Shown piece by piece: positions 10,318 through 50,514 of a DNA stretch of 64,000 bases; position 1 is the first letter of the stretch; every line of letters begins with the position of its first letter. The notes under the pieces are model-generated. The model did not search any database. It saw only the letters and a program-made list of their open reading frames with translations, and was not told the DNA's origin. Origin of the DNA: an uncultured Sphingobium sp. (GTDB lineage: Bacteria > Pseudomonadota > Alphaproteobacteria > Sphingomonadales > Sphingomonadaceae). A program made the translations under genes and the position numbers. The DNA is taken from contig CBFHAG010000005.1 of the NCBI GenBank assembly GCA_965653535.1, forward strand, positions 6,037 to 70,036. The letters run 5' to 3'.

Positions 10318-10403
10318 GAATGAACCCCCTGAAGTGTGAATGACGTTCGCCCGGAGACGAGCGCTTGCCCGTCGGTGCCGTACCTCATCCAAGCACCGAC
10401 TTG

Positions 10404-28155: not shown

Positions 28156-29331
28156 TTATTTGCCGAACGTTCCGATATAAAGTCCTGTTGGATGGCCAGA
28201 CTTTCCGGTGGGATCCTTTATTGCGAAAGCGATGCGGTGGCCGTCAGGCGAGGCCGCCGATTGATGTGCCTGAGCGCCCGATGGGCTGACATGCGTCAGC
28301 GCCCGGCGTGACTTACCGTCCATGGTGATGACAAAGATGTCGAAGCCCTTGCCGGAATGAGTCGCGGCGATTTCAGCGGCACGGGGCTCTCCCTTGACGC
28401 GCAATATCTGTTCGACGCCTGGCCGGATGTGGGCCGTGATGCCGCGATAGGGGCCGTCAGGGTCGGAAAAGAGATTGGCTTCCTCCAGGCCATAATGTTC
28501 GTCGGGGAAGACATGGGTCTCATTATGGGAGGGGGTGGCGTAAACCTTGCTGACCGCCTTGGTCGCGATATCGACCTTGTACATTTCGCTATTCAGCGCC
28601 TCCATTTCGGTGGTCCAAAACATGACGCTCCGCCCCCCGTCGATGAAGTCATAGGCTTCGGGGAAGCTGGCGGGGCCAGGCTTGCCAGGGCGATAGTCAT
28701 AGAGGCTCTGTTGGTCGGCGAGATGCGCGGTGTGCCCGTCATTGATCAGCCGGGCCTTGACCAGTTCCAAACCTGTTGCGGTCGGACGCGACCAGGAGAT
28801 ATCGACCGATCCATCGGCATTCGCGCTGCGGGCGATTGCAATATCGCCCATCGCGCCGCTGTTGAGCGCAACCGGGCGGGCGAGCGCTTTCGACATCCAG
28901 AAAAGCTGGGTCCGCGCCACGTCTGCCGCTCCGCCACTGCCCCCCTTCATGCCGGGTGCGGCTTCGATCAGGAAGCTGTCGTCGGGTAGATAAAAGATGC
29001 GGGTGACGAACTGGGTTTTGCCGAACTTGCAGGTAAGGCAGCGCACCTTCTTCGTGCGCATGTCGATTTCATATGCTGGGCTGTCGACCAGATCGTCCTT
29101 GGTAAAGGCGATGCGGCGGCTATCGGGCGACCAGTTGGGTCGGCTGCCCCAGTCCAGAATGCGTTCCTGACGGAAAGGAGCGGTCAGATAGTCGATCTTC
29201 GCATCGCTGGCCGATACAGCAGGCGCGGCGAGGACAGGCGCTGCGATGAAGGGCAGCGCGGCGGTCAGTAGCGCCGCGTTCAGAAGGCGGGCAACGAGTG
29301 TGGGCTTGCCACCGACATTTGGATTGATCAC
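28156..29331 (-). CDS. Secreted TolB/PD40-like beta-propeller protein
   Basis: Signal peptide; WGSRPNWSPDSRRIAF, SPDGHRIAF; paralog of 36766-37833. Confidence 0.65.
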   Translation of the reverse strand: MINPNVGGKPTLVARLLNAALLTAALPFIAAPVLAAPAVSASDAKIDYLTAPFRQERILDWGSRPNWSPDSRRIAFTKDDLVDSPAYEIDMRTKKVRCLTCKFGKTQFVTRIFYLPDDSFLIEAAPGMKGGSGGAADVARTQLFWMSKALARPVALNSGAMGDIAIARSANADGSVDISWSRPTATGLELVKARLINDGHTAHLADQQSLYDYRPGKPGPASFPEAYDFIDGGRSVMFWTTEMEALNSEMYKVDIATKAVSKVYATPSHNETHVFPDEHYGLEEANLFSDPDGPYRGITAHIRPGVEQILRVKGEPRAAEIAATHSGKGFDIFVITMDGKSRRALTHVSPSGAQAHQSAASPDGHRIAFAIKDPTGKSGHPTGLYIGTFGK

Positions 29332-29356
29332 GTCTCAGGCTCCATGGTTCGATTTT

Positions 29357-30295
29357 CTAGATGGTTGGTTCGTGCGATGCGCCAAGGCTTTGCAGCACGG
29401 TGGCGCGGGCAGGGATGGAAGCAGCCGCTCCCAGCGATCGGACGGCGACCGATGCTGCGGCATTGGCTTCCTGCGCGGCCCGTTCTATCCCGTCGCCACG
29501 GGCGAGCCCCGCTGCGAGATACCCGCAGAAGCAGTCTCCAGCGCCAGTCGTGTCAATCACGGTCGCAGGGAGTCCCGCGATGCGGACAATGCCGCTTTCC
29601 CCAATGATCGCCAGGCCGTCAGCCCCCAATGTCACGAGCAGCGTCTGACCGTGCGTCAGTCCGAGCAAGTTACGGCTCAACAGTAGTCCCGCATCGTCCA
29701 GCATTACCCCGCCGTCAGCGCCGGTGAGCAGGGCCAGTTCGCTTTCATTGACGATGAGCAGGTCACAGAATGGCAGAAGCTGGCGCGCATCGGACGACGC
29801 AGGCGCGGCGTTGAGGATCGTGCAGGCTCCGGCTGCGCGGGCCCGATGGAATAGTGCTGCCGTGGCGGAGGCGGGCGTCTCCATCTGAGCAAGGCAGACG
29901 TCGTTCGGGCCAAGATCGACCCCGGTTGCAAGCGTCGTATCGACATCGCTGTTCGCCCCTGCGATATGGATGATCTGATTGTCCTGTGGCGATGTCGCAA
30001 CCAGCGCGCAGCCCGTGGCGGAGGAGGTGACCCGCAGCCGCGCGGTATCGACGCCATGATTGGCGAGAGCGGCCATCATGCTTGCGCCGTCATCATCGGC
30101 CCCGACTGCGGCCAGCAAGGTGCAATGCGCCCCCGCCCGCGCGGCACCGACCGCCTGATTTGCGCCCTTGCCGCCCAACTGACGCGTCACGCTGGTCCCG
30201 GATACGGTTTCGCCCGCGCAGGGCAGGCGGGGGGTGCTGACGAGCAGGTCGACATTGACGCTCCCCAGCACGATGACTTTGCCCGCACCGGCCAT
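29357..30295 (-). CDS. Ribokinase-like PfkB carbohydrate kinase
   Basis: GSVNVD, GGKGANQAV, NAAP, VNESE, DTTGAGDCF. Confidence 0.9.
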   Translation of the reverse strand: MAGAGKVIVLGSVNVDLLVSTPRLPCAGETVSGTSVTRQLGGKGANQAVGAARAGAHCTLLAAVGADDDGASMMAALANHGVDTARLRVTSSATGCALVATSPQDNQIIHIAGANSDVDTTLATGVDLGPNDVCLAQMETPASATAALFHRARAAGACTILNAAPASSDARQLLPFCDLLIVNESELALLTGADGGVMLDDAGLLLSRNLLGLTHGQTLLVTLGADGLAIIGESGIVRIAGLPATVIDTTGAGDCFCGYLAAGLARGDGIERAAQEANAAASVAVRSLGAAASIPARATVLQSLGASHEPTI

Positions 30296-30297
30296 GG

Positions 30298-30795
30298 TCA
30301 GCCGCCCTGCTCAAGCAGAGCGAGTTTGGCGACACGACGGCGGAAATGTTCTTCATCGCTGAAACGCGCCGCCAAGAAATGGCGGACGATGTCGAGCGCG
30401 ATCTGCGGTCCTGTGATCCACGCGCCGATGCACAGCACATTGACGTCGTCATGCACGACCGCCTGCCGCGCGACATAGGTGTCGTGCGCGACGGCGGCGC
30501 GGATGCCGCGCACCTTGTTGGCTGCGATGCACGCCCCCGCGCCGGTCCCACATAGCAGGATGACGCGATCGGTCTGGCCATCAAGGATGGTCTGCACCGC
30601 GCGGCGGGTGATGTCGGGGAAGTCCACCGGCTCTTCGGATTGCGCGCCCACATCGATGATGCGTCCGCTATGGCGGGCCAGAAGGTCCAGCACCGGCGGG
30701 CGCAGCGGGAAACCGGCATGGTCGTTGGCAAAGCCGATGACTTCCCGAAAAGGAATAGCCTGTTCGTCCCCCGACAATGTTTCTGGCTTTACCAT
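30298..30795 (-). CDS. RpiB/LacA/LacB-family sugar-phosphate isomerase
   Basis: DHAG, CGTGAG..IAANKVRGIRAA, HDDVNVLC, RRRVAKL. Confidence 0.9.
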   Translation of the reverse strand: MVKPETLSGDEQAIPFREVIGFANDHAGFPLRPPVLDLLARHSGRIIDVGAQSEEPVDFPDITRRAVQTILDGQTDRVILLCGTGAGACIAANKVRGIRAAVAHDTYVARQAVVHDDVNVLCIGAWITGPQIALDIVRHFLAARFSDEEHFRRRVAKLALLEQGG

Positions 30796-30877
30796 CGATC
30801 CCCCAATTTTATGCCGCACGGCCGCCGCCAAGTCCTTCACAGGTAGAATCGGACCTACCCACTGGCGTCGCGATTAC

Positions 30878-30896
30878 AATGTGGTATGACCAGTTT
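30878..30896. promoter_or_regulatory. FadR-subfamily operator candidate AATGTGGTATGACCAGTTT
   Basis: TGGT-N3-ACCA core; 16/19 identical to the reverse complement of 50496-50514. Confidence 0.65.
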
Positions 30897-30922
30897 GAAA
30901 TTCGATCAAGGGGGAGGGCAAA

Positions 30923-32251
30923 ATGGCAGACGGCAGGGAGGACGCGCTGGGACGTGGAAGGCTGGCGTCTTTCTGCGTGACGGCGCTGGCGATCCAGGCC
31001 TACGCCACGCTGGTCACGGTTTTCCTGCCGGAATTTTACGCCAATGCGTTGGCTTTGCCGGTGGCGGCAGTCGGAACCGCCTTCATGACGGTGCGCGTGC
31101 TGGACCTGATGATCGATCCGCTGCTGGGCGGGATGATGGACGCGACACGAACCCGATGGGGCCGATACCGTCCGTGGCTGGCGGCGAGCGCACCGATCCT
31201 GATGCTGTCCACCTATGCCCTGTTCCAGCCGGAGCGCGGGGTCGGCATGGCCTATTTGTGGGCGTGGCTGTTTATCGCCTTTATCGGCTTTTCGATGATC
31301 GTTTTGTCTCATCTGGCCTGGACGGCGACCCTTTCCACGGGCGCTGCGGAGCGGACGCGGATCTTTGCCTGGTGGCAGGTTTTCGCGACGGCAGGGCAGT
31401 TTTCCATCCTTGCCATTCTGCCGCTGGTGGCCAGTGCCTATCCGGGCGACCCGGCAGCGGGCATGCATGCTGCCGGTTGGGTGATGATCGTGCTCATTCC
31501 CGGCGCGATCCTGCTGGCGCTGCGGACTACGCCTGAAAAACGGCCTGCGGACGGCGCTCAGGCGGCGCTCGCCGTGCGAGATTATGTCGCGTTGTTCTCG
31601 CAAGGTCCGGTCGTCCGACTGGTGCTGGCGGACCTGCTGATCGCTTTGTCCACCGGCGTCGCCAATGCGGTGGCGCTGTTCTTCTACATGGGGCAACTGG
31701 GCTTTGACCGCGCGGTGGCAAGCACGCTGATCCTGATCGCCTATGCCGCCGCCTTCGCGGGCACGCCATTGTTCGTCAAACTCGCTGGACGGATCGGCAA
31801 GGCGCGCGCGTTGCAGGCTGGGGCATTGCTTCAGGCGGTGCTGCAATTGGGAATGGCGGTGCAACCAGCCAATTCATTCTGGCTGACGGCCGCCAATGTC
31901 GCGGCGCTGGGCCTGTGCATTCCAATTGCCTGGTTCCTGCCCCGTGCGCTGATGGCCGATGTCGCCGACGCGACCCGCGCGCGTTTCGGCGTCGATCGCA
32001 CTGGGCTGCTTTATGCGACACTCAACGGGTCGATGAAGCTGGCGCTGGGGCTGGCGGTGGGCCTGGCCTTCCTGCTTCTCGGCTGGCTCGGCTTCGATCC
32101 TGCCCATGCGAGCGATCCGCGCAACGCCTTGCCGCTGCGCACCTTGATCGGCATCGTGCCCGCGCTTTTCTCGTTAGGCGTGGTCCTGTGCATGATGCGA
32201 TACCCTGAAAACACCCTGCGCGACGCGAGCCGCAAGGCCGCACTCGCCTGA
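30923..32251 (+). CDS. MFS transporter, GPH/MelB glycoside:cation symporter family
   Basis: DPLLGGMMDATRTRWGRYRPW, ALMADVAD...RTGL, 12-TM pattern. Confidence 0.88.
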   Translation: MADGREDALGRGRLASFCVTALAIQAYATLVTVFLPEFYANALALPVAAVGTAFMTVRVLDLMIDPLLGGMMDATRTRWGRYRPWLAASAPILMLSTYALFQPERGVGMAYLWAWLFIAFIGFSMIVLSHLAWTATLSTGAAERTRIFAWWQVFATAGQFSILAILPLVASAYPGDPAAGMHAAGWVMIVLIPGAILLALRTTPEKRPADGAQAALAVRDYVALFSQGPVVRLVLADLLIALSTGVANAVALFFYMGQLGFDRAVASTLILIAYAAAFAGTPLFVKLAGRIGKARALQAGALLQAVLQLGMAVQPANSFWLTAANVAALGLCIPIAWFLPRALMADVADATRARFGVDRTGLLYATLNGSMKLALGLAVGLAFLLLGWLGFDPAHASDPRNALPLRTLIGIVPALFSLGVVLCMMRYPENTLRDASRKAALA

Positions 32252-32277
32252 AAATCCTCATAGCGAAAGATCAACTG

Positions 32278-33231
32278 ATGAACCGTCGCGATCTGCTCAA
32301 ATCCTCTGCCCTTCTGATGCTCGCGGCTGGCGTGCCTGCGGCGGCAGGCCGCCGATCTGCATCGCTGTTGGGGAAGGAGGGCGCGGGCGTACAGCTCTAC
32401 ATGTTCGATCCTGATCTTTCCCGCGATTTCGACGGCACGCTGGCCAAGATTGCCGCAGCAGGCGTGCGTTCTGTTGAGCTTGCCTCGCTGCATCGCCGCT
32501 CCCCAGCCGAGTTCCGTGCGGCGCTGGACAAGGCGGGCCTTAAATGCCGCAGCGCCCATGTTGCGGCATCTTCCGCCGTACCGGGCGCATCCGGCCTCTC
32601 TTTCGATGATCTCGGCAAGCTGACGGATGATCTGAAGGTGCTGGGCGCACGCAACGCCGTGCTGCCACTGTTCCAGTTCCCCAAGGACCCGGTCTGGGGA
32701 CCACCCGTGTCCATCATGTCGCTGATGCGTGCTGACAGCCCGCCGTTATCCGCCGAACGCTATGAACGGATGGCGGATTTCCTCAACCAGACCGGCACTG
32801 TCCTTAAAAAACAGGGCGTCAGGATCGGCTACCACAATCATAATGGCGAACTCGCGCCGATTGGCGACAAGACCGGCCTGCAGATACTGCTGGAACGGAC
32901 CGATCCGCGCATCGTCGATTTCGAAATGGATGCGGGCTGGCTGGCGGCGGGCGGGGAGGACCCGGTCGTGTGGCTCCAGCGCTATCGTGGCCGCTTCACC
33001 CAAATGCATGTGAAGGACATCAGGGCGGATACGGTGGTCAATTATCATATGCAGCAAAAGCCGACAGAGGTGGGGTCGGGCACGATGGACTGGCCGGCCA
33101 TCCTGAAAGCGGCGCGGGCTGCGGGCGTGCGCAACTTCTTCGTTGAGCAGGAGCCACCTTTCCCCGGCGCGCGCATCGACTCGCTGAACAAGAGCCTTGC
33201 CTATCTTCGCACGCTGGAGACTGCCCGATGA
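32278..33231 (+). CDS. Tat-exported sugar phosphate isomerase/epimerase-family protein
   Basis: NRRDLL signal; GVQLY, GYHNH, FEMDAGW, MHVKD, EVGSG, FFVEQE. Confidence 0.85.
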   Translation: MNRRDLLKSSALLMLAAGVPAAAGRRSASLLGKEGAGVQLYMFDPDLSRDFDGTLAKIAAAGVRSVELASLHRRSPAEFRAALDKAGLKCRSAHVAASSAVPGASGLSFDDLGKLTDDLKVLGARNAVLPLFQFPKDPVWGPPVSIMSLMRADSPPLSAERYERMADFLNQTGTVLKKQGVRIGYHNHNGELAPIGDKTGLQILLERTDPRIVDFEMDAGWLAAGGEDPVVWLQRYRGRFTQMHVKDIRADTVVNYHMQQKPTEVGSGTMDWPAILKAARAAGVRNFFVEQEPPFPGARIDSLNKSLAYLRTLETAR

Positions 33232-34481
33232 GCCATAGCATGTTGTTTCGCACGACGATCCTGGCGTCATTCTTCGCGGCTGCGGCCATGCCGGTGCAGG
33301 CGCAGAATGATGCTTCGCCAGCCCTGCTTTTCGATGATGTGACCGAAACCCATGTGCCCGTTTCCAAATATCTGCACGCGCTGGACGTGGCGCTGGTGGA
33401 TGTGGATGGCGACGGCGATCTGGACGCGGCAATCGCGGTCGAGATGGGCGCCAATCGGCTGTACATCAATGACGGGCAGGGTCATTTCACCTGGAAGCAA
33501 GAAGCGCTCGGCATCAAGAAGCATGACAGCGAGCATGTGCTGTCGGCCGACTTCAACCGTGACGGCTATCCCGACCTGATCTTCGTCGCGGAGGAGGATC
33601 ACGCCCACCAGCTGTTCCTGGGCGGACCGGGCGGCGTGTTCACCGAAGCGTCCGACCGCCTGCCCAAGATGAGCGAGGGCAATGGCCTGGCGGTGGGCGA
33701 CGTCAATGGGGACGGCCTGCCGGACATCGCAATCGGCAATTCCGCTGAGGACCGGCCCGGCAAGCCGCGCGCGTCAGGGCAGAATTTCCTGTGGCTGAAC
33801 GACGCGAAACAGCCCGGCACTTTCATCGATGCGACCGCCACGCATCTGCCTGCCTATGAGGATGACACGCAGGACATCGCGCTGGCGGACATGGATGGTG
33901 ATGGCGATCTCGACATGGTGGTTGGCAACGAAAGCCCACCCAATCGCCTGCTGCTGAACGATGGCAAGGCGCATTTCCGCGAGGCACCCAAGGCTCTTCA
34001 GCTGCTCACGCCGTTGGAAACGCGTGAAGTGCATGTGTTCGACGCCAATGGCGATAAACGCCCCGACATCCTGTTCCTGAACCTGACCAGCAACAACAAG
34101 AAGTGGGACAAGGACCCGCAGGCCAGATTGCTGATCAACAAGGGGCGGGGCAAGTTTCGCGACGAAACCAAGACGCGCCTGCCCGCCAACCGCTTTTCCA
34201 GTTGGGGTGGGATGGTGATGGACTTCAACCATGACGGCCATCCCGACCTGATCGTCGGTGCCATCGATGTGCCGGGGTTCAAGCCGTTGCAGCTTCGCGC
34301 CTACGCCAATGACGGCAAAGGCCGCTTCACCGATGTCACTGCTTCGGTCATGCCCGCCGCGACGGTCGCGCGGAGCTGGAGCATGGCGAAGGGCGACGTG
34401 AACGGCGATGGCGTGGAGGACCTTTTCGTCGGCAGCTGGGGCACGCAGGCGCGCCTGCTGCTGGGCAAGTCCGGCAAATAG
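33228..34481 (+). CDS. Secreted FG-GAP/VCBS repeat protein
   Basis: Signal peptide; about seven DxDGDGDLD / DxNxDGxPD Ca-binding repeats. Confidence 0.85.
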   Translation: MSHSMLFRTTILASFFAAAAMPVQAQNDASPALLFDDVTETHVPVSKYLHALDVALVDVDGDGDLDAAIAVEMGANRLYINDGQGHFTWKQEALGIKKHDSEHVLSADFNRDGYPDLIFVAEEDHAHQLFLGGPGGVFTEASDRLPKMSEGNGLAVGDVNGDGLPDIAIGNSAEDRPGKPRASGQNFLWLNDAKQPGTFIDATATHLPAYEDDTQDIALADMDGDGDLDMVVGNESPPNRLLLNDGKAHFREAPKALQLLTPLETREVHVFDANGDKRPDILFLNLTSNNKKWDKDPQARLLINKGRGKFRDETKTRLPANRFSSWGGMVMDFNHDGHPDLIVGAIDVPGFKPLQLRAYANDGKGRFTDVTASVMPAATVARSWSMAKGDVNGDGVEDLFVGSWGTQARLLLGKSGK

Positions 34482-34591
34482 CGTCGCATCCCTGTTCCAC
34501 TGGGCGGAATAGGGCGCGCCCTGCAAGTCGGAAATTGCGCGTTTCCCCGCAGCTTTGTAAGCCCGGCTTTATCCGGGGGCGAGGAGCGGGC

Positions 34592-35878: not shown

Positions 35879-35900
35879 GCGCTTCCGGGCCTGTCTTCCC

Positions 35901-36686: not shown

Positions 36687-36765
36687 ATGATGGAACAGCG
36701 GCGCGAACGAATTGACTTGGCCCCGTATTCAAGGTGCACCACCATGGAACAAGGAGAGACGATTC

Positions 36766-37833: not shown

Positions 37834-37840
37834 AAACGCG

Positions 37841-37879
37841 GCGGCGGGGGAGGGGCATTGACCGCCTCCTCCCCGCCGC
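37841..37879. terminator. GC-rich hairpin between convergent genes
   Basis: GCGGCGGGG / CCCCGCCGC stem; no U-tract. Confidence 0.5.
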
Positions 37880-37882
37880 TCG

Positions 37883-40045: not shown

Positions 40046-40254
40046 CCTCCTTATGCTCCTAAACTTTCAGACCGGGTACGTTCAGTCTGCACCCGACAAC
40101 GCACAGGGGCAATGATCTGCCCTGCGCCGTTCCGCCATGTGGAACCGTGCGTCCCCAGGCACCCAATCTGTTCCACATCGCGGAAAGGCGGGTTTCGCCA
40201 ACCAACCCCTCGCTTTAGGCCGCGCGCCATAACATCGATAGATTTGTAGAGGGG

Positions 40255-42549: not shown

Positions 42550-42572
42550 TCGCAAATGACAGGGACGGCGCG

Positions 42573-44243
42573 ATGATCTGGGCACAGAATTACGACCCGT
42601 TTGGCAACGGTTTGCTCTCGGCCCTGGTCGCCGCCGTCCCCGTCGTCGTACTGTTGGGCGCGATCGGCCTGTTCCATGTGCGGGCGCACATCGCCGCGCT
42701 CATGGGCCTGGGCGCAGGGTTGGCCATCGCCGTGCTGGCTTTTGGTATGCCTGCGGCCTTGGCGGTGCGCGCGGCTGGTTTCGGGGCGGCCTATGGGTTG
42801 CTGCCGATCGGCTGGATCGTGCTCAACATCATCTTCCTCTATCAGCTGACGGAAACGACAGGGCAGTTCCACGTCCTGCGTGGCGCGATCACCTCGATCA
42901 CTGCGGACAGCCGGTTACAGCTGCTGCTGATCGCCTTCTGCTTCGGCGCTTTCTTCGAAGGTGCGGCAGGTTTTGGGACGCCGGTCGCGGTGACCGGAGC
43001 GATGCTGATCGGCCTTGGCTTCACGCGGTTGCAGGCTTCAGGCCTGTCGCTGATCGCCAATACTGCGCCCGTGGCCTTCGGCGCACTGGGCACGCCGCTG
43101 GTCACGCTGGCAGGCGTGACGGGCCTGCCACTGCTCGAACTGTCGGCGATGGTCGGGCGGCAGATGACACCGTTTGCCATCATTGTGCCTTTCTGGCTGC
43201 TGGTCGCCTATTGCGGGTGGCGGCGGACGATGGAGGTGCTGCCTGCGGTGCTCGTCGCAGGCGTCAGCTTCGCGCTGGTGCAGCTGCTCATCTCCAACCT
43301 TCACGGCCCATGGTTGACCTCGATCGGGGCGGCGCTCGCTTCGATCGGCGCGCTGATCGCCTTCCTGCAAGTCTGGAAGCCCGCGCGGATTATGCACGTC
43401 AATGAGGCGAAGCTCGCCGCCGGTGACGAGCGGGACGTGGCGGCAACCATTGACGCGGCCCATGCCCAGCCGCTGCATGATCCCGCCGCTGTCCGGCGCG
43501 CCTGGATGCCGTGGATCATCCTGACAGGCTGCGTTTTCCTATGGGGGCTTCCCTTCATGAAGCAGGGGCTGGACGCCATCTTCGCGCTGCGCCTGCCCTT
43601 CGCTGGGTTGGACGGCGTGATCCAGCGCCTGCCCCCGGTCGTCACCGCGCCGGAGTTTGAGAAGGCGGTCTATAACCTCAACCTGCTGTCGGCGACGGGG
43701 ACGGCGATATTGGTCGCGGCCCTTGCCTCCGCAATGCTGTTGCGTGTGCCAGCGCGCACGGTCGGCCTCGTCTATCTGCGCACGTGGAAGCTGGTATTTC
43801 CATCACTGCTCACCATCGCGGCGATGCTGGCGCTGGGTTATCTCACGCGTTTTGGCGGTATCGATGCGTCCATGGGCCTGGCCTTCGCGGCGACGGGCGT
43901 GCTCTATCCCTTCTTCGGCACCATGCTGGGGTGGCTGGGTGTAGCCGTCACCGGATCGGACACGGCGTCCAACGTGCTGTTTGGCGGCCTGCAAAAGATC
44001 ACTGCCGAGCAACTGAACCTATCCCCCGTGTTGATGGCGGGCGCGAATAGCGCGGGCGGGGTGATGGGCAAGATGATCGACGCGCAAAGCATCGTCGTCG
44101 CCTCTACCGCTACCCAATGGTTCGGGCAGGAGGGCCGTATCCTGCGCCATGTCTTCGTCCACAGCCTGGTGCTGGGTTCGTTGATCGGTCTTTTCGTGAT
44201 GCTGCAAGCTTATGTCTATCCCTTCACTCTCCTTGTTCCCTGA
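42573..44243 (+). CDS. L-lactate/glycolate permease (LctP/GlcA family)
   Basis: CFGAFFEGAAGFGTP, ANTAPVAFGALGTP, GSDTASNVLFG, GKMIDAQSI. Confidence 0.92.
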   Translation: MIWAQNYDPFGNGLLSALVAAVPVVVLLGAIGLFHVRAHIAALMGLGAGLAIAVLAFGMPAALAVRAAGFGAAYGLLPIGWIVLNIIFLYQLTETTGQFHVLRGAITSITADSRLQLLLIAFCFGAFFEGAAGFGTPVAVTGAMLIGLGFTRLQASGLSLIANTAPVAFGALGTPLVTLAGVTGLPLLELSAMVGRQMTPFAIIVPFWLLVAYCGWRRTMEVLPAVLVAGVSFALVQLLISNLHGPWLTSIGAALASIGALIAFLQVWKPARIMHVNEAKLAAGDERDVAATIDAAHAQPLHDPAAVRRAWMPWIILTGCVFLWGLPFMKQGLDAIFALRLPFAGLDGVIQRLPPVVTAPEFEKAVYNLNLLSATGTAILVAALASAMLLRVPARTVGLVYLRTWKLVFPSLLTIAAMLALGYLTRFGGIDASMGLAFAATGVLYPFFGTMLGWLGVAVTGSDTASNVLFGGLQKITAEQLNLSPVLMAGANSAGGVMGKMIDAQSIVVASTATQWFGQEGRILRHVFVHSLVLGSLIGLFVMLQAYVYPFTLLVP

Positions 44244-44256
44244 CGAGGCGCGCGCT

Positions 44257-45567
44257 TTGCCCGATCGGATTGTCGCCGCGCGCGCCCTGTTGAAAAGCAT
44301 CTATCTGGAAGCGATCGAGTCGGTGCGTGGCGAACGGCTGATCGAAGCGCTGGAGAGGCCTGAGGGCGACCGCTGGCGCATCCGGCATGGCGGCGCGGAA
44401 ATCGACTGGCCGCTGCCCCCCGGCGGGCGCATCGTTGTAATCGGAGCTGGGAAGGCCGTAGGGTCGCTGGCCAAGGGGCTGGAAACCATATTGGGGGACC
44501 GGATCACCGACGGGTGCATCATCATTAAGCATCATCATCACGAACCGCTGACCCGCATCCGCCAGTTGGAAGCCGGGCATCCCATTCCCGACGCTCATGG
44601 TGTCGAGGCGACTCGTGAGATGCTGCGCACCGTCGAGGGTTTGACAGAGCGCGACACTGTGATCGTGCTGCTGACGGGCGGCGCTTCGGCATTGATGGTC
44701 GCGCCGGTCGATGGTGTCACGCTGGAGGAGAAGGCTGCCGTCACCGAAATGTTGTTGCGGTCCGGCGCGTCGATCGAGGAAATTAATTCGGTTCGCAAAC
44801 GCCTGTCGCGGGTCAAGGGCGGACAGCTGCTGGACCGGATCGGCCCGGCGTCCGCCCTGACCCTGCTGATTTCCGACATACCCAGTGGCGACATCGGCAT
44901 GATCGGATCGGGGCCGACCATCGCGGCGGACGAGAGTCAGGAGGACGCCACCGCGATCCTCACTCGATATGGCCTGAGCTGTCAGATACCCGAATCGATC
45001 AGGCTCACACTCAACCGGAAACAGGGTTGCGCGCAAACGGCACAGGGGCAAAACGCGGCGATTTTGCTGGCGGACAGCGCCACTTTGGTGGAGACAGTGC
45101 ACGCTATCGCTGCCCGGGAGGGATTGGCGGTGCGAAATGTCGATACTGCCATGGCGGGCAACACCCATGTCGCGGCGCAAGCGATGGCGACCACCCTGCG
45201 TGCCATCCCACAGCAGGAGCGTCCGGCGTTGCTGGTTTCAGCAGGTGAAACGACGCTTCAGGTGAAGGGCGAAGGCCGCGGCGGACGCAATCAGGAATAT
45301 GCGCTGGTCGTCGCGATGGCCCTGGCGGGAGCAACCGATGTTGCGCTTCTTTCCGCCGGAACGGATGGAACCGACGGTCCCACCGATGCGGCGGGGGCGT
45401 TCGCCGACGGCGCGGTGGTCCAGCGCGCTCAGCAGGCGGGAATCGACCCCGCAGACGCACTGATGCGTAATGACAGCCATGCGCTGTTCGACGCGACGGG
45501 CGATCTGTTCCACACGGGACCCACGGGCACCAACGTTATGGATCTTGTCCTTGGCATTGCATTCTAA
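44257..45567 (+). CDS. Type-2 glycerate kinase (DUF4147/MOFRL), copy 2
   Basis: GAGKA, AGHPIPD, LTGGASAL, GETTL, GGRNQE, TDGTDGPTDAAG, TGPTGTNVMD. TTG start is inferred. Confidence 0.88.
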   Translation: MPDRIVAARALLKSIYLEAIESVRGERLIEALERPEGDRWRIRHGGAEIDWPLPPGGRIVVIGAGKAVGSLAKGLETILGDRITDGCIIIKHHHHEPLTRIRQLEAGHPIPDAHGVEATREMLRTVEGLTERDTVIVLLTGGASALMVAPVDGVTLEEKAAVTEMLLRSGASIEEINSVRKRLSRVKGGQLLDRIGPASALTLLISDIPSGDIGMIGSGPTIAADESQEDATAILTRYGLSCQIPESIRLTLNRKQGCAQTAQGQNAAILLADSATLVETVHAIAAREGLAVRNVDTAMAGNTHVAAQAMATTLRAIPQQERPALLVSAGETTLQVKGEGRGGRNQEYALVVAMALAGATDVALLSAGTDGTDGPTDAAGAFADGAVVQRAQQAGIDPADALMRNDSHALFDATGDLFHTGPTGTNVMDLVLGIAF

Positions 45568-45597
45568 GTGGCTGGATCAGGAAGAGAGGAAGAGAAC

Positions 45598-46389
45598 ATG
45601 GTGAAGCTAGCGGCCAATCTGTCGATGATGTTCCAGGACCTGCCCTTTCTGGACCGTTTCGACGCGGCGGCAGCGGCTGGGTTCAAGGGCGTGGAGTTTA
45701 TGTTTCCCTATGACCATGACGAACGGCAGCTGGCCGCGCATGCTCGGCAGTGCGGTCTGGAGGTGGTGCTGTTCAACTTGCCAGCGGGTGATTGGGCCGC
45801 TGGAGAGCGAGGCATCGGAGCGCTGCCCGACCGGGTCGGGGAATTTCGCGAGAGCGTCGCGAAGGGACTGGACTATGCCCGCGCGCTGCAATGCCCGCGC
45901 CTTCACCTGATGGCAGGCAAAGCTTTGTCTAACACGGAAAACCGGTCGGTCCTGGCGGAGAATATCCGTCATGCCGCCACGCTTGCCGCCGCCGATCGCA
46001 TCGAGATATTGATCGAGCCGATCAACACGCGCGTTGATATTCCAGGCTATTTCTACGGCACCACCGCAGAAGCGCTGTCGGTCATTGATGAAGCGAACTG
46101 CGCCAACGTCCGACTGCAATATGACATTTATCATATGCAGATCATGGAAGGTGACCTCGCCCGCACGATCGAGCGGCTGCTTCCGCGCATCGGGCATATG
46201 CAGCTGGCCGACAACCCGGGCCGCGCCGAACCGGGTAGTGGCGAGATAAACTATCCCTGGCTGCTCAGCCACATCGACGCGCTGGGCTATACGGGCTGGA
46301 TCGGATGTGAATATCGCCCGGCAGGTGACACGAGGGCAGGGCTGGGCTGGGCGGGCGATTATCTCAAATCTCAGGAGAGCATGACATGA
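45598..46389 (+). CDS. hyi: Hydroxypyruvate isomerase
   Basis: AANLSMMF, GVEFMFPY, NLPAGDWAAGERGI, IEPIN, QYDIYHMQIMEGD, ADNPGRAEPGSGEINY. Confidence 0.88.
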   Translation: MVKLAANLSMMFQDLPFLDRFDAAAAAGFKGVEFMFPYDHDERQLAAHARQCGLEVVLFNLPAGDWAAGERGIGALPDRVGEFRESVAKGLDYARALQCPRLHLMAGKALSNTENRSVLAENIRHAATLAAADRIEILIEPINTRVDIPGYFYGTTAEALSVIDEANCANVRLQYDIYHMQIMEGDLARTIERLLPRIGHMQLADNPGRAEPGSGEINYPWLLSHIDALGYTGWIGCEYRPAGDTRAGLGWAGDYLKSQESMT

Positions 46390-47273
46390 GGATCGGTTTC
46401 ATTGGCCTTGGCATTATGGGACGGCCCATGGCCGGGCATCTGCAAGCGGCGGGTCATGCCATCTACAGCTGCGCGAACCGCACACCGATGCCGGAGGAAC
46501 TGCGCGAAGGTGGCGCGGTCGCCTGCGCCACGCCTGCGGAAGTGGCCGCACAGGTGGAATGCCTGATCCTGATGCTGCCCGATACGCCGGATGTCGAACG
46601 CGTGCTGTTCGGCGCGGATGGCGTCGCGCAGGGGCTGAAGCCCGGCGCGACCGTCATCGACATGAGCTCCATCGACCCTATCGCGACGCGCGACTTTGCG
46701 GCCCGGATCGAGGCTTTGGGCTGTGCCTATGTCGACGCGCCGGTGTCCGGCGGCGAAGTAGGCGCAAAGAACGCCGCGCTCACCATCATGTGCGGCGGCA
46801 GGGAAGACGTGTTCGAAAAGGTCCGCCTCCTGTTGGAACTGATGGGCAAGAACATCACGCTGGTAGGCGATGTGGGGGCGGGACAGGTGACGAAGGTCGC
46901 CAACCAGATCATCGTTGCGCTCAACATCGAAGCGGTATCCGAAGCGCTGGTCTTTGCGTCGAAGGCTGGGGCCGACCCTGCCCGCGTGCGTGAGGCGCTG
47001 ATGGGTGGCTTTGCGGCATCACGCGTGCTGGAGGTGCATGGTCAGCGAATGATTGACCGGACATTTGACCCCGGTTTTCGCATCCGGCTGCACCAGAAGG
47101 ACCTGAACCTGGCGCTGTCGGGCGCTCGCTCGCTTGGGATCGCTTTGCCTGCAACCGCGAACGCGCAGCAGCTGTTCAGCAGTTGCGTCGCGCATGGTGA
47201 TGGCGACAAGGACCATAGCGCGATGGTCATGGCGTTGGAGCGGGCTGCCAACCACGGGGTGGGCACTGCATAA
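46386..47273 (+). CDS. glxR: 2-hydroxy-3-oxopropionate (tartronate semialdehyde) reductase
   Basis: GFIGLGIMG, DAPVSGGEVGA, KVANQIIVALNIEAVSEAL, EVHGQRM, HQKDLNLAL. Confidence 0.92.
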   Translation: MRIGFIGLGIMGRPMAGHLQAAGHAIYSCANRTPMPEELREGGAVACATPAEVAAQVECLILMLPDTPDVERVLFGADGVAQGLKPGATVIDMSSIDPIATRDFAARIEALGCAYVDAPVSGGEVGAKNAALTIMCGGREDVFEKVRLLLELMGKNITLVGDVGAGQVTKVANQIIVALNIEAVSEALVFASKAGADPARVREALMGGFAASRVLEVHGQRMIDRTFDPGFRIRLHQKDLNLALSGARSLGIALPATANAQQLFSSCVAHGDGDKDHSAMVMALERAANHGVGTA

Positions 47274-47309
47274 TGATGCGTTGCAGATGTTTCGTCGGGC
47301 GACCGGCTT

Positions 47310-48113
47310 TCAATAAAGTGCGATGACCCGCGCGGGCATTCCGGTCGCCTGATCCAGCGGCGCGACTCCGGCGAACAGGAGGCCGCCGGACGCGGGCGCG
47401 CGATCAAGGTTGGTCAGCGCCTCCAGACCCCATCGTCCGCTCCGCAGCCACGACAGATGAACCGGGAAATCCGGCATGGATTCCCCGGCATCCAGCGACA
47501 TGGTATCGACGCCGATGCCATTTACGTCCCGCTTCATCAGCATGTCGATCGCCGCCGCATCGAAGCCGGGACTCTTGCGCCGTTCAGCCGGTGAAAGACT
47601 GCCATAGCGCGCCATCATGGTGAGCGGGTCCCAGCCGGACAGCATCGCGACGCAGGCGCCGGCGGGGATGCGGCCATGGCGACGCTCCCACGCGGCAAGG
47701 TCGTCCGGCATGACGCGGGCGTCGCGATCCTTGGCTGCCTTTTGCCTTATGTCGATGACGGCGAGCGGGACGATCAACTGGCTGATCGGCAAGTCACCGA
47801 CAGAGGCACCATCGGGTGCGAAATGGCGCGGTGCGTCCAGATGGGTTCCGGTATGTTCGACGATCGAGACGCGGTTGAGCGCCATTCCGGCCTTCGAACC
47901 TGACCCCTGCACTGCTTCCATGGACAGGCGGTCGGGGGTGAAGGCGAAGGCGCGCGTCAGCTTGTGCGTGAGGTCCAGAATATGGAGTTGTTGCCCGTGC
48001 AGGGGCAGGCTGGCCGCGTCCGGTGTGACTGCCGCCGCATCCCCGCGCGATCCGCTGCCCAGAGCGATCGCCCCTAATGTGGTCAGGGCCAGAATGTCGC
48101 GGCGATCCATCAT
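47310..48113 (-). CDS. Tat-exported cyclase-family (kynurenine-formamidase-like) metal hydrolase
   Basis: DRRDIL signal; EHTGTHLDAPRHF, GIGVDTMSLD, EALTNL, GMPARV. Confidence 0.85.
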   Translation of the reverse strand: MMDRRDILALTTLGAIALGSGSRGDAAAVTPDAASLPLHGQQLHILDLTHKLTRAFAFTPDRLSMEAVQGSGSKAGMALNRVSIVEHTGTHLDAPRHFAPDGASVGDLPISQLIVPLAVIDIRQKAAKDRDARVMPDDLAAWERRHGRIPAGACVAMLSGWDPLTMMARYGSLSPAERRKSPGFDAAAIDMLMKRDVNGIGVDTMSLDAGESMPDFPVHLSWLRSGRWGLEALTNLDRAPASGGLLFAGVAPLDQATGMPARVIALY

Positions 48114-48130
48114 GCGGGCGCTCCTGCTGT

Positions 48131-50335
48131 TCAAGCCAGATCGATGGCGACGACTTCGTGGAAATCGATGTGCGGCACTTCGACCTCGACCCATCCGTCA
48201 TTGCCTTGCATCGGCATGGTCACCCCTGCTGTCAACAGCCGCGCCTGCACGGCGCGCTGGCCTTGGGGAATCTGCAGGCGAACGCGATAGGGTCCGGTCC
48301 TGATCGCCTCGCGATAGCTGCCCTGCATGGTCATGGGATTGTTCAAGTTGACCAGATGCGCCGTAACGGATTTGTCCTGCCGCCAACAGGCAATGTCCAG
48401 CAGCCCCGGCCCGTCAATCTGCAAGGGATGGGCTTCCTCATGCGCCCAATCGAGCATTGCCTGCATCAGCCGGAGATGATCGCCGTGACTAAGCTCGGCG
48501 AAAGTCCGGTCAAGGTCCATGGGCAAATAGACGACGCGGCCCCGCCCGACCTGACGACAGATCGCCATGGGAATGTCGGTTTCCATTTTGTCGCTAAACA
48601 CCCGTTCCATCGGCAGGTCGGGGTAGGTCGGGACCAGCGTCAGTGCTACTTCTGCCGGGTTGCGTGCGGTGACGGGCTGGCGATGGAGCGGTCCGATCGT
48701 GCGGCTGATCTTGCCAAGGCCTGCCATGGCGGAATGCGTGTGGTGCAGCGTTAGATAGGCGTTTTTGAGCGGGCCTTCTGCTTCCCCTGCCGCCGAACAG
48801 CCAAACAGGTCGGCCAGCCCGAAATCCGATCTCTGCCGCCCTTCGCCATCGAACAGAGAGGTTTGATAGGTCGCGACCACCCGCCCGCCGCGGGTCACGA
48901 AGGCGCGGATTTGATCGCATTGCGCGTCGGACAATATGGCTGCATTGGCAAGGATGATCGTGCGGAAACGGGACAGGCTGGCCTGGTCGAGAAAGCCCTC
49001 ATCAATGAGGTCGAACGGCAGCCGCGATTCCAGCGCGGCCTGGTAAAATCCCGCTCCATGTTTTTCCAGTTCCTCACGCTTCGTCCAGCCGCCCAGATAG
49101 GCGGTCGTCGTCGGCGTGTGCAGAAGCCCAACGCGGGCCATATTATGCGTGTTGCGCAGATAATCTTCGTTGGCGTGATGCCAGCTATAGATTTGCCGCA
49201 CCACGTCCATCCAGCGAAGGTCGAGCGGCTTGGCATTGAATTTGGTGATCCAGGGACGTGCGCCCTGGGCGATTGCGCCTGCGGCCCAGATGCGGATTTC
49301 GGCCGGGTCCTGGACGGAATCCTTCCACCGATAGGCCTCTTCAACACCCACGGAAATGATATGGCCGACCGGCTTGTCCTGCATGAAGGCGCGCAATTCC
49401 CGCGTGTAGCGCCCAGCACCCCAGACTTCCGGTCCCGTCGTCCAGGCGGAATGGACAGCGGACCGTGCCTGTCGGTCGCAGAAGGCCAGCGGCAGCCGCT
49501 TGGAAAGATCCGGCCCATCCAGATCCACCAAGCCGCGACGGTCACCGCCGGGGATGAAGAAGGCGTCGGGGCGATATTTGCGCGCCGCCGCGTTCCACAG
49601 GTCGATGAGCGCGAAAGACCGGCGTTCGATCCAGTCGGCGTAACGCTGACCCTCCGGTTTTGACGGGTCGGGGTCAGCCGGAATTTCCTGTCCGGTCGTG
49701 GCGCGGTAGAGGGTTCGGCAGCTTTGGCAATAACAGGTGCCGCTGCCGTTCCAGCGATTGCCGAAGAAGCCGTCCACCGGGTAGCGGCGGGCGATTTCCT
49801 CGATAATCTTTGGCATCAGTTCGAAATTATAGGGACCGTAGGCGCAGGTCAGGGTGAGATCGGGCGCGCTGCCATGGCGCTTGATCTTGCCGTCCTGCCC
49901 GGTCAGCGCCCATTCGGGATGGGCGGCCGCAGCGGCTGCGTTCATGGCATGCGGATCGATCCGCGCGAGCACGCGCATGCCGAGTTTCTTGCACGCCGCC
50001 ACCATGTCGCCGAACGGGTCGACATCCGTGCCGACGCCCTGAGCCATGCCATGATAGGGGATCGCCGTTGGATAGAAGGCGATGCCGCCACCCGCGCTGA
50101 GGCAGACGCCATCGGCATGGATCTGCTGGAAATAGTCGATCCAGAATGAGGGGTCGTACCGGCCCGGATCATCTTCCGTGAAGGCGAGCTGGAACCAGCG
50201 CAACGGCTCGCTCGCCCAATCCGGCGCGCTGTTTCGCCCTATCTTTCGCGCGAAGGCCGGTTCGAGACTCGTCAGCAGCGCCCCAGCTCCAAGGCCCAGG
50301 GCTGTCCGACGATTGAGCGGCAAGATGCCAGGCAT
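48131..50335 (-). CDS. Tat-exported GHL6-like protein (second paralog)
   Basis: NRRTAL signal; GGGIAFYPT...DPFGDMVAACKKLGMRVLARID; CYCQSC; GFYQAALESRLPF. Confidence 0.72.
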   Translation of the reverse strand: MPGILPLNRRTALGLGAGALLTSLEPAFARKIGRNSAPDWASEPLRWFQLAFTEDDPGRYDPSFWIDYFQQIHADGVCLSAGGGIAFYPTAIPYHGMAQGVGTDVDPFGDMVAACKKLGMRVLARIDPHAMNAAAAAAHPEWALTGQDGKIKRHGSAPDLTLTCAYGPYNFELMPKIIEEIARRYPVDGFFGNRWNGSGTCYCQSCRTLYRATTGQEIPADPDPSKPEGQRYADWIERRSFALIDLWNAAARKYRPDAFFIPGGDRRGLVDLDGPDLSKRLPLAFCDRQARSAVHSAWTTGPEVWGAGRYTRELRAFMQDKPVGHIISVGVEEAYRWKDSVQDPAEIRIWAAGAIAQGARPWITKFNAKPLDLRWMDVVRQIYSWHHANEDYLRNTHNMARVGLLHTPTTTAYLGGWTKREELEKHGAGFYQAALESRLPFDLIDEGFLDQASLSRFRTIILANAAILSDAQCDQIRAFVTRGGRVVATYQTSLFDGEGRQRSDFGLADLFGCSAAGEAEGPLKNAYLTLHHTHSAMAGLGKISRTIGPLHRQPVTARNPAEVALTLVPTYPDLPMERVFSDKMETDIPMAICRQVGRGRVVYLPMDLDRTFAELSHGDHLRLMQAMLDWAHEEAHPLQIDGPGLLDIACWRQDKSVTAHLVNLNNPMTMQGSYREAIRTGPYRVRLQIPQGQRAVQARLLTAGVTMPMQGNDGWVEVEVPHIDFHEVVAIDLA

Positions 50336-50495
50336 GATCCTCTCCTTTGATGGAGCGGACTCTAGCCCCGGTTTACCGATCCACAATCGATCTTCCCATG
50401 ATGTGGAACAACAATGGTCGACCGAAATGTCACACGCCTAAAACTATGCTAAGATCGCCCACGGTTCGGCTCAACGCTTATCGACAAAGGCGGGT

Positions 50496-50514
50496 AAACA
50501 GGTCATACCAGTTT
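50496..50514. promoter_or_regulatory. FadR-subfamily operator candidate AAACAGGTCATACCAGTTT
   Basis: 19-bp palindrome with one arm mismatch, in the GHL6/IclR divergent region. Confidence 0.65.

Follow-up and report, generated by a model that had tools for sequence, protein, structure and literature searches.

Recurrent pairing of GHL6 genes with C3-acid genes in a Sphingobium cluster points to an undescribed nutrient pathway

To our knowledge, glyoxylate carboligase (Gcl) and GarL are the only established sources of tartronate semialdehyde, and free D-glycerate needs nothing but a kinase. Among the glycoside hydrolase (GH) families, GH151 enzymes complete their active site from a neighboring subunit. 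For the GH151 alpha-L-fucosidase ALfuk2, the catalytic residues are the nucleophile D154 and the acid/base E235 (PMC10154630). Two further described proteins matter here, SPH1118 of Sphingomonas sp. A1, which binds pectin and unsaturated trigalacturonate (PMC7055323, PMC9314435), and the A. tumefaciens O-glycoside beta-eliminase AtOGE (PDB 8BVK; PMC10628242). Here, we analyzed a 64 kb stretch of DNA from an uncultured Sphingobium sp. (contig CBFHAG010000005.1, GC ~63%), referred to below as the window. At positions 28156-51361 it carries a gene cluster that combines two members of the GHL6 family (GHL6a and GHL6b) with genes of C3-acid metabolism, namely a homologue of hydroxypyruvate isomerase (Hyi), a tartronate semialdehyde reductase (TSAR, GlxR), two glycerate kinases (GK1 and GK2) and a permease of the LctP family. 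The pairing of GHL6 with C3-acid genes, as it emerges from gene content and conservation, points to an undescribed nutrient pathway.

The pairing was followed across 80 loci that contain a GHL6a homologue (a single genome for each species, 1.45 Mb in total) by tblastn with the window proteins and by de novo clustering of open reading frames (ORFs), counting neighbors within +/-10 kb. TSAR and D-2-hydroxyacid dehydrogenase genes were each found in 25/80 loci, the latter often directly downstream of GHL6, and MOFRL-type glycerate kinases homologous to GK1 or GK2 in 16/80. GntR/FCD regulators (14/80), LctP (12/80), Hyi (7/80), other isomerase-like TIM-barrel proteins of the AP_endonuc_2 family (7/80), GlcD together with GlcF (6/80) and GlxK-type glycerate kinases (5/80) complete the set. 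Since TSAR is normally present in one or two copies per genome, 25 copies in 1.45 Mb represent a very large enrichment; the Rhizobium copy passes the TIGR01505 model. Of the 80 loci, 45 carry one or more genes for a reductase, dehydrogenase, isomerase or kinase, and 26 carry at least two kinds of C3-acid gene, with LctP included in the count. Loci with GHL6 and C3-acid genes come from Sphingomonadales, Rhizobiales, Paenibacillus, Actinopolymorpha and Cytophagia/Chitinophagia/Bacteroidaceae, and thus from four phyla, here named Alphaproteobacteria, Bacillota, Actinomycetota and Bacteroidota.

The GlxK-type kinases, which are 41-51% identical to E. coli GlxK, all belong to Bacteroidota and occupy the same position as the MOFRL kinases, to which they are not homologous. 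By its sequence, this is a non-orthologous displacement, which argues for function over shared ancestry of the gene block. Operons of Spirosoma, Dyadobacter and Chitinophagales are compact, consisting of a GH138-like gene, two to three GHL6 genes, a TIM-barrel gene and a 2-hydroxyacid dehydrogenase gene with no other catabolic genes; LctP is found in two of the three and a GlxK-type kinase in two of the three. Their gene order is GH138-like-GHL6-LctP-TIM-2HADH-GHL6-GlxK, where 2HADH stands for the dehydrogenase. Judged from these neighborhoods, the link between GHL6 and C3-acid genes is real and old. Gene-neighborhood conservation had been named as a check in a preliminary description of this DNA, and the co-occurrence in 45/80 loci and four phyla bears it out. 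The proposal made there, that GHL6 and a Hyi/GlxR/glycerate kinase/LctP set without Gcl form one system, gains support from this recurrent linkage and from the conserved motifs that both parts share.

Some loci carry variants of the downstream module. In two Paenibacillus loci (L053 and L062), a long co-directional array contains a CUT1 ABC importer, a GH138-like gene, in part an enolase-superfamily dehydratase gene, GHL6, a 2-hydroxyacid dehydrogenase and a TSAR-like gene, and continues with GlcE-GlcF-GlcD, an IclR regulator and a FAH-family hydrolase; this richer version might reveal extra pathway steps. In three metagenome-assembled genomes (MAGs) of Bacteroidaceae (L058, L065 and L070), GHL6 follows the dihydroxyacetone-kinase subunits DhaK-DhaL and a 319-aa AP_endonuc_2 TIM protein, and L058 and L065 have a GlxK-type kinase near GHL6, resembling a triose-level variant.

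The transport genes follow the predicted location of GHL6, which was called on the GHL6 ORFs of the loci with a crude signal-peptide script. GHL6 is predicted to be exported (Tat or Sec) in 11 of the 12 loci with LctP; in the twelfth (L020), it aligns from query residue 8 and probably has a signal as well. ABC importers of the Opp or CUT1 type, on the other hand, stand beside a signal-less GHL6 in 24 of 25 loci. LctP therefore appears limited to loci with exported GHL6, and ABC importers seem to accompany cytoplasmic GHL6. This split fits GHL6 releasing a small monocarboxylate, as periplasmic cleavage would need a carrier for the acid while cytoplasmic cleavage would import the intact substrate. 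It also fits the earlier suggestion of periplasmic cleavage with separate import of the acid.

Two operator-like motifs connect the transcription units of the cluster (Table 1). One unit runs leftward through rpiB, a PfkB-family kinase gene and a PD40 propeller gene (30795 to 28156), and another rightward through the genes for a GPH symporter, a TIM-barrel protein with a Tat signal (Tat-TIM), an FG-GAP propeller and GK1 (30923-35878). The gntR gene (minus strand) is divergent from the third propeller gene (36766-37833), and GHL6a (minus strand) is divergent from an operon of a TonB-dependent receptor (TBDR) gene followed by lctP-gk2-hyi-glxR (40261-47273). GHL6b and the gene for a cyclase-family hydrolase run leftward (50335 to 47310), divergent from iclR. 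Motif A has two matches in 64 kb against 0.38 expected, both in cluster promoters. Both sites lie inside blocks that are 100% conserved in sister genomes, compared with ~68% identity in other intergenic DNA, and the block around the rpiB/GPH site (AACTGGTCATACCACA) is conserved in L010 and L036.

Motif B has the consensus GTTCC-N7-GGAAC. At no more than one mismatch, 19 of its 20 sites in six related loci (L009, L010, L036, L011, L012 and L016) fall in cluster promoters, namely those of GK1, GHL6a/lctP, a TBDR, the PD40 propeller, the cyclase gene and iclR. The sites upstream of GK1 are kept in L009, L010, L036, L011 and L012, both blocks between GHL6a and the TBDR gene in L009, L010 and L036, and the block TCATCATATGGACG of the gntR/propeller region in L010 and L036. 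Furthermore, the motif A and motif B blocks of the GHL6b/iclR promoter are invariant among four genomes, whereas the rest of that region is ~68% identical. Both motifs occupy orthologous sites in L009-L012, L036 and L016 (a Sphingomonas MAG); in L011 and L012, motif B stands upstream of another TBDR gene, and in L016 its sites flank iclR. Since motifs A and B precede the main transcription units, the cluster looks like one regulon in Sphingobium, with the limitation that motif B is weak at two of its sites. The GntR/FCD protein would be the candidate binder of motif A, and the IclR protein that of motif B.

Taken together, we give a probability of about 0.5 to the reading in which the region acts as a single regulon for the use of an extracellular acidic glycoside or oligosaccharide. 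The substrate would cross the outer membrane, in this strain via the TBDR, and the two Tat-exported GHL6 enzymes would dismantle it in the periplasm, helped by the Tat cyclase-family hydrolase, the beta-eliminase-like Tat-TIM and three secreted propellers. One product, presumably released by GHL6 itself, would be a small 2-hydroxy or 2-oxo C3 monocarboxylate that is imported by LctP and converted by Hyi, TSAR and a MOFRL glycerate kinase to D-glycerate and on to 2-phosphoglycerate. In Sphingobium, the sugar part would enter by the GPH symporter and be handled by the PfkB kinase and RpiB.

At the center of this model stands a family without a characterized member, a close structure or any literature in the resources searched. 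GHL6a and GHL6b both exceed the Pfam GHL6 cut-off of 35 bits, and no NCBIfam model matches either of them; 290 clusters at 50% identity have E<=1e-30 to GHL6a. Literature searches on GHL6/PF14871, and on TSAR, Hyi or glycerate kinase with glycoside hydrolase or L-glycerate/lactate permease, returned nothing relevant. The AF2 model of GHL6a (pLDDT 88.5) suggests a three-domain GH42/GH151-type fold, with the GH151 structure 6TVK as the top Foldseek match (TM 0.72/0.78, 16% identity), followed by GH42 (TM 0.61-0.69) and GH164. A Cys4 metal site (C165, C211, C213, C216) is 97% conserved and aligns with the CxCxxC of 3TTS.

Statements on the active site rest on alignments and predicted secondary structure, with conservation taken from 94 family members of both paralogue groups. 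In the profile alignment, the Asn-Glu pair of GH42 falls on an Asn-Val of the GHL6a consensus, strand 4 ending in N194 and a variable residue, and strand 7 (349-355, LDLYLMG) has no Glu, unlike the strand that bears the GH-A nucleophile. The 'FLD' motif of 6TVK aligns to 'FFN194', and N194 is invariant in all 94 members. It would occupy the position of D154 in GH151, provided that, as we infer, the chain index matches the published numbering; the equivalent of E235 is ambiguous in the alignment. Because the catalytic residues are not kept, GHL6 is, on these alignments, neither GH42 nor GH151. Profile and structure prediction, which the preliminary description had proposed as a check, hence uphold GHL6 membership and the GH42/GH151-type fold, while the catalytic residues of both families did not carry over. 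The invariant set comprises R53, Q56, D63, D110, R129, D131, E181, N194, R327, E562 and N651, and its three arginines (R53, R129 and R327) suggest an anionic substrate.

The paralogues GHL6a and GHL6b share 23% sequence identity. Genes of the two types are adjacent in Clostridia, Acidobacteriota, Actinomycetota and Bacteroidota (L047, L054, L055, L060, L075, L078, L079 and L088), and the two proteins may act in sequence, or as an obligate pair or hetero-oligomer. Across phyla, GHL6b is more conserved (40-45%) than GHL6a (27-33%).

Four other explanations were weighed. It is possible, though unlikely, that the genes are juxtaposed by chance, lctP-gk2-hyi-glxR being the tail of a glycolate/glyoxylate route with a distant carboligase and the GHL6, propeller and GPH genes degrading an unrelated neutral glycan. 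LctP is about equally close to GlcA (the glycolate permease) and LldP, the GlcD/GlcF-type genes found in six loci are of the glycolate oxidase type, the IclR regulator is similar to BhcR, IclR and AllR, which sense glyoxylate, and the gcl search was limited to the window and the loci. Within that range, however, tblastn with E. coli Gcl (E<=1e-5), GarL, GarD, OtnK (YgbK) and OtnC (YgbL) found none of these proteins in the 64 kb window or in any of the 80 loci. For the glyoxylate carboligase pathway, Hyi, TSAR and glycerate kinase (two of the MOFRL type) are thus present and Gcl was not found; GarL and GarD (the galactarate/glucarate pathway being recognized by GarL with GarD or GudD) were likewise not found, nor were the OtnK and OtnC of the L-threonate/D-erythronate pathway. 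The reported lack of glyoxylate carboligase and glucarate genes in the window is thereby corroborated. Because the defining enzymes are absent from window and loci, the cluster does not, by gene content, belong to the gcl, gar or otn pathways, and the match to a characterized pathway that had been named as a possible refutation did not materialize; the aldarate pathway (GarL/GarD) and the tetronate pathway (OtnK/OtnC) were rejected on the same searches. Chance is further disfavored by a gcl count of 0/80 (1.45 Mb) next to TSAR in 25, by the same pairing in four phyla with non-orthologous kinases and dehydrogenases, by the way in which LctP follows GHL6 localization, and by motif B, which the promoters of the two GHL6 genes have in common with that of the lctP operon and which other species have kept.

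The nature of the glycan bears on a second explanation, in which the GHL6 proteins are uronidases on pectin-like oligosaccharides, and TSAR and the kinase finish an aldarate-type route (uronate to aldarate to 5-keto-4-deoxy-glucarate to pyruvate and tartronate semialdehyde) with its earlier steps encoded elsewhere. Several neighbors are in line with such a substrate. In Rhizobiales loci, the Opp-type substrate-binding protein (SBP) beside the cytoplasmic GHL6 matches the oligogalacturonide binder SPH1118 closely (E 2.5e-117). A recurrent 735-aa neighbor matches BPa0997/6HZE, which we take to be a GH138 alpha-galacturonidase acting on rhamnogalacturonan II. GH79-like and GH39-like genes also recur near GHL6, an enolase-superfamily gene resembling galactarate/talarate dehydratases is present in L037 and L053, and the invariant arginines of GHL6 agree with an acidic ligand. 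These observations hint at a carrier other than gellan, namely an acidic, pectin-like oligosaccharide that would be rich in uronic acids. As to the uronidase route itself, we hold it to be improbable, since the window and loci contain no GarL, GarD or uronate dehydrogenase-like gene, the LctP family carries C2-C3 monocarboxylates and not uronates or aldarates, the compact Bacteroidota operons have no aldarate genes, and the restriction of LctP to exported GHL6 would be left unexplained.

The identity of the acid separates the regulon reading from a specific form of the hypothesis in the preliminary description, in which glucosyl- or mannosyl-glycerate or L-glyceryl-gellan yields D- or L-glycerate in the periplasm, and LctP then imports this acid for phosphorylation. 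Two glycerate kinases in the window and two unrelated kinase families over 21 loci speak for glycerate, LctP could plausibly carry it, and the Tat cyclase-family hydrolase could act as a de-acylase. Nevertheless, TSAR and 2-hydroxyacid dehydrogenase outrank the kinases in conservation and an isomerase accompanies them, which argues against free D-glycerate as the product. L-glycerate would require a second oxidoreductase for its additional oxidation, and the compact Bacteroidota operons encode a single dehydrogenase, which argues against this isomer as well. Gellan is made by few sphingomonads and is disfavored by the presence of the gene set in many taxa, among them Paenibacillus, Actinopolymorpha, Spirosoma and Rhizobium, and no GH63 or GH38 domain, as expected of a glucosyl- or mannosyl-glycerate hydrolase, was found by Pfam in the proteins of 25661-52943. 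We therefore regard this version as quite unlikely. Its link between GHL6 and C3-acid genes stands, but free D-glycerate is disfavored, given that isomerase and reductase are the best-conserved partners. The window combines Hyi, TSAR and a kinase, and the Bacteroidota operons a TIM protein, a 2-hydroxyacid dehydrogenase and a kinase; either set would funnel the tautomer pair of hydroxypyruvate and tartronate semialdehyde to D-glycerate. The conservation of isomerase, reductase and kinase together favors a product at the hydroxypyruvate/tartronate-semialdehyde level, and 'glycerate' is probably not the exact product.

Least probable of the four is a variant of the four-carbon acid-sugar (L-threonate/D-erythronate-type) pathway, with Hyi as 2-oxo-tetronate isomerase, GlxR as tetronate dehydrogenase and a MOFRL kinase in place of OtnK: the Hyi homologue does pass the 2-oxo-tetronate isomerase model (NF043033, 359 against a cut-off of 325), tetrose metabolism typically involves RpiB-like and TIM-barrel proteins, as in the erythritol/threitol pathways of Brucella and Mycobacterium, and DhaK/DhaL stand beside GHL6 in Bacteroidaceae loci, but GlxR shares 60% identity with E. 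coli GlxR (44% with GarR, 29% with LtnD/YgbJ) and scores 176 against a cut-off of 350 in the L-threonate dehydrogenase model NF043037, Hyi is nearer to E. coli Hyi than to YgbM, OtnK and OtnC were not found, and both kinase families of the loci are known only as glycerate kinases. With its OtnK, OtnC and LtnD partners absent, the Hyi gene would probably be misnamed by automatic annotation.

We return to the regulon reading. A more specific form of it, which is tentative and which we doubt more than we believe, regards GHL6 as a new catalytic family on a GH42/GH151 scaffold that releases tartronate semialdehyde or hydroxypyruvate from a natural conjugate, for example an acetal or ketal on an acidic, pectin-like oligosaccharide. 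Several points weigh against the regulon reading as a whole. We know of no natural glycoconjugate that would release either compound, and ~35/80 loci, mostly distant homologues or short contigs, have no reductase, dehydrogenase, isomerase or kinase gene. GHL6, which has kept the catalytic residues of neither GH42 nor GH151, may not be a glycosidase at all, and Gcl could be encoded elsewhere in the genome. Furthermore, a crude script supplied the signal-peptide calls and the ORF starts used for the loci, and the assignment of the motifs to particular regulators is a guess.

If the regulon reading holds, an orphan family gains a context in which isomerase, reductase, glycerate kinase and LctP form a defined downstream route. 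There may then be a third source of tartronate semialdehyde, independent of Gcl and GarL and widespread in soil bacteria, from which the enigmatic Hyi would gain a physiological role. The distribution over rhizosphere Sphingomonadaceae, Rhizobiales, Paenibacillus and Cytophagia suggests a plant- or microbe-derived acidic glycoconjugate as the carbon source, and an unrecognized carbon source of this kind would matter for soil carbon turnover and for the annotation of carbohydrate-active enzymes. A protein identical to GHL6a is present in soil and rhizosphere metagenomes, and the copy of Sphingobium vermicomposti DSM 21299 is 89% identical. Among sequencing runs, a search returned DNA metagenomes of soil and rhizosphere and three very small runs whose type is not given, and no RNA run that could be used.

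Other parts of the cluster are specific to its lineage. Among the 80 loci, the genes for the PfkB kinase, RpiB, GPH symporter, Tat-TIM and FG-GAP propeller are found only in close Sphingobium relatives (that for the PfkB kinase only in L010-L012 and L036), and therefore represent a lineage-specific addition. The module of ribokinase-like protein, RpiB, GPH and Tat-TIM carries motif A and appears to be co-regulated with the cluster; its distribution confines its inclusion in the system, as proposed earlier, to Sphingobium. The TBDR gene, which had also been counted as a part of the system, is present in the window, and the three closest Sphingobium genomes (L009, L010 and L036, one of them S. 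vermicomposti) lack it at this site. In these three, lctP is directly divergent from GHL6a. Only the lineage of this strain has the TBDR gene between lctP and the conserved motif B operators, as though a receptor gene had recently entered an operon that was already there. In Sphingomonas loci, GHL6 is flanked by other TBDRs.

The Tat-TIM protein has AtOGE (8BVK) as its best PDB sequence match (E 1.7e-22, 83 bits). The cluster contains no GMC oxidoreductase, and the N-terminus of the sole Gfo/Idh/MocA protein in the window (23238-24461) leads straight into the Rossmann fold without a Tat or other signal. A periplasmic 3-keto-glycoside route as the core mechanism was rejected, given the lack of an exported dehydrogenase and the restriction of the Tat-TIM gene to Sphingobium.

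Gene identities were assigned by Pfam and NCBIfam profile searches, and signal peptides were read from N-terminal translations (Table 1). Every gene named in the preliminary description was recovered, with Tat signals on Tat-TIM, GHL6a, GHL6b and the cyclase-family protein and Sec-type signals on the three propellers, as stated there. The third propeller, without a Pfam hit, is predicted to be an all-beta propeller by its AF2 model (pLDDT 91.3), and Foldseek returned only generic propellers (TolB, S9 peptidase, PL22, SMP30; TM 0.45-0.56) and no functional lead. Two names need qualification. RpiB holds, whereas the 'ribokinase' is a PfkB-family protein that scores 230 bits in TIGR02152, under the cut-off of 300, and is best called ribokinase-like, a candidate specificity. 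The 'hyi' gene is indeed a homologue of E. coli Hyi, although it scores just under the Hyi model TIGR03234 (341 against 353) and passes the 2-oxo-tetronate isomerase model instead. LctP scores below the LldP and GlcA equivalog cut-offs.

PD40a is 28% identical to the propeller at 36766, and its homologues adjoin GHL6 in eight loci, one of them a Chitinophagales MAG. The FG-GAP gene start overlaps the Tat-TIM gene by 4 nt, and the glxR start overlaps the hyi stop codon. The cyclase-family hydrolase, which matches 8F9X (177 bits) and isatin hydrolase (120 bits) in the PDB, is encoded in 10 GHL6 loci, and iclR is kept beside the GHL6b or cyclase gene in six. The hairpin between the convergent Prop373 and GHL6a genes is probably a bidirectional terminator; a scan for sigma-70 and terminator consensus sequences, which did no better than on shuffled sequence, did not list it.

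Table 1. Genes, operator-like motifs and hairpin of the cluster, with positions in the window
Feature	Position	Strand	Evidence and remarks
PD40/TolB-type beta-propeller PD40a	28156-29331	-	weak Pfam PD40; Sec-type N-terminus; last gene of rpiB-kinase-propeller operon
PfkB-family sugar kinase, ribokinase-like	29357-30295	-	Pfam PfkB 175 bits
RpiB/LacAB-family sugar-phosphate isomerase	30298-30795	-	NF004051 152.7 > 135 cut-off; 165 aa by gene caller's start
Motif A TGGTATGACCA	30882-30892	.	FadR/GntR-type palindrome in rpiB/GPH divergent promoter
GPH/MFS_2 glycoside-pentoside-hexuronide symporter	30923-32251	+	Pfam MFS_2 215 bits; TIGR00792 156, below cut-off
Xylose-isomerase-like TIM barrel (Tat-TIM)	32278-33231	+	Pfam AP_endonuc_2; Tat signal MNRRDLLK
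FG-GAP/VCBS repeat propeller	33228-34481	+	Pfam FG-GAP_3 175 bits; Sec signal
Motif B (GTTCC-N7-GGAAT)	34494-34510	.	upstream of GK1; <=1 mismatch
GK1, MOFRL-type glycerate 2-kinase	34592-35878	+	Pfam DUF4147+MOFRL; E 7.5e-68 to PDB 2B8N
GntR/FCD regulator, LldR/GlcC-like	35901-36686	-	Pfam GntR+FCD
Motif B, weak	36680-36696	.	gntR/propeller divergent region; 2 mismatches
Third secreted propeller Prop373, 355 aa	36766-37833	+	Sec signal; no Pfam family
Hairpin, G+C-rich, perfect (GCGGCGGGGGAGG...CCTCCTCCCCGCCGC)	37841-37879	.	read from sequence; between convergent Prop373 and GHL6a genes
GHL6a	37883-40045	-	Tat signal TRRDLV; Pfam GHL6 (PF14871) 80.5 bits
Two motif B operators (GTTCCGCCATGTGGAAC, GTTCCACATCGCGGAAA)	40129-40186	.	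GHL6a/TBDR-lctP divergent promoter; <=1 mismatch
TonB-dependent receptor (TBDR)	40261-42549	+	Pfam Plug + TBDR barrel
LctP-family 2-hydroxy-monocarboxylate permease	42573-44243	+	TIGR00795 476 > 341 cut-off
GK2, second MOFRL glycerate kinase	44257-45567	+	Pfam DUF4147+MOFRL
Hyi/OtnI-family hydroxypyruvate isomerase homologue	45598-46389	+	50% identical to E. coli Hyi, 43% to YgbM
GlxR, tartronate semialdehyde reductase (TSAR)	46386-47273	+	TIGR01505 384 > 341 cut-off
Cyclase-family (PF04199) metal-dependent hydrolase	47310-48113	-	Tat signal DRRDIL; Pfam Cyclase 122 bits
GHL6b	48131-50335	-	Tat signal NRRTAL; Pfam GHL6 59.4 bits
Motif B	50393-50409	.	GHL6b/iclR divergent promoter; 2 mismatches
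Motif A	50500-50510	.	GHL6b/iclR divergent promoter (50393-50510)
IclR-family regulator, BhcR/IclR/AllR-like	50567-51361	+	Pfam IclR_C + HTH_IclR

Outside the cluster, the window holds several further features. Directly to its left lies a pair of genes for FdhD and a YdeP-family molybdopterin oxidoreductase (24901-28021), which is also found in contigs of the identical strain (L001) and has neither motif A nor motif B. The segment 14000-22000 has a GC content of 0.59 compared with 0.63-0.67 and is possibly acquired; this lower-GC stretch includes steroid-degradation-type genes for a KshA-like Rieske oxygenase (18034-19122) and a FAD_binding_2 flavoprotein resembling KstD/fumarate reductase (16208-17845). 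Two minus-strand TBDR ORFs (6326-8392 and 8248-10392) overlap by ~145 nt, and the first, which has a barrel match, no Plug domain and weak coding-like GC3 over most of its length, may be a degraded or frameshifted duplicate. Finally, there are a three-subunit operon of the xanthine-dehydrogenase/aldehyde-oxidase family and an ABC ATPase with two ABC-2/DUF3526 permeases beside a TBDR (1973-5807 and 10458-13878).

Compared with known systems, the acid branch resembles the E. coli gcl-hyi-glxR...glxK region, with adjacent hyi and glxR, a glycerate kinase, a carboxylate permease and an IclR-type regulator nearby, as AllR in E. coli. It differs in having no Gcl in the window or in any of the 80 related loci, in kinases of the MOFRL rather than the GlxK type, and in being embedded among exported GHL6 genes with operators common to both. 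GHL6a shares a TIM barrel, a GH42M/Rossmann-like domain and a beta-sandwich with the GH151 enzyme ALfuk2 (6TVK), the GH42 beta-galactosidases and the GH164 beta-mannosidase, and retains the GH42-type metal site. Sequence identity to these enzymes is only 12-16%, however, an invariant Asn stands where ALfuk2 has its nucleophile Asp154, and the 'NE' acid/base of GH42 is not kept. The resemblance to 3-keto-glycoside systems is restricted to Tat-TIM, which lacks an exported glycoside 3-dehydrogenase partner and occurs in Sphingobium versions of the cluster alone. With the SPH1114-SPH1118 system of Sphingomonas sp. A1, the Rhizobiales loci share a close SPH1118 homologue; the Sphingobium window does not contain this SBP system, and no GH28, PL or Kdu genes accompany GHL6.

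As a whole, the cluster is laid out like the TonB-dependent glycan loci of Proteobacteria and the polysaccharide utilization loci of Bacteroidota, which likewise combine a TBDR with exported hydrolases, carriers in the inner membrane, finishing enzymes in the cytoplasm and local regulators. Its TBDR gene is the first of the lctP operon and has motif B upstream. In contrast to these loci, its hydrolases come from an uncharacterized family, its dedicated cytoplasmic enzymes serve a C3 acid and not a sugar, and even sister species do not keep the TBDR in this place. By analogy, the cluster would work like a TonB-dependent glycan-utilization locus that feeds the tail of a glycerate pathway.

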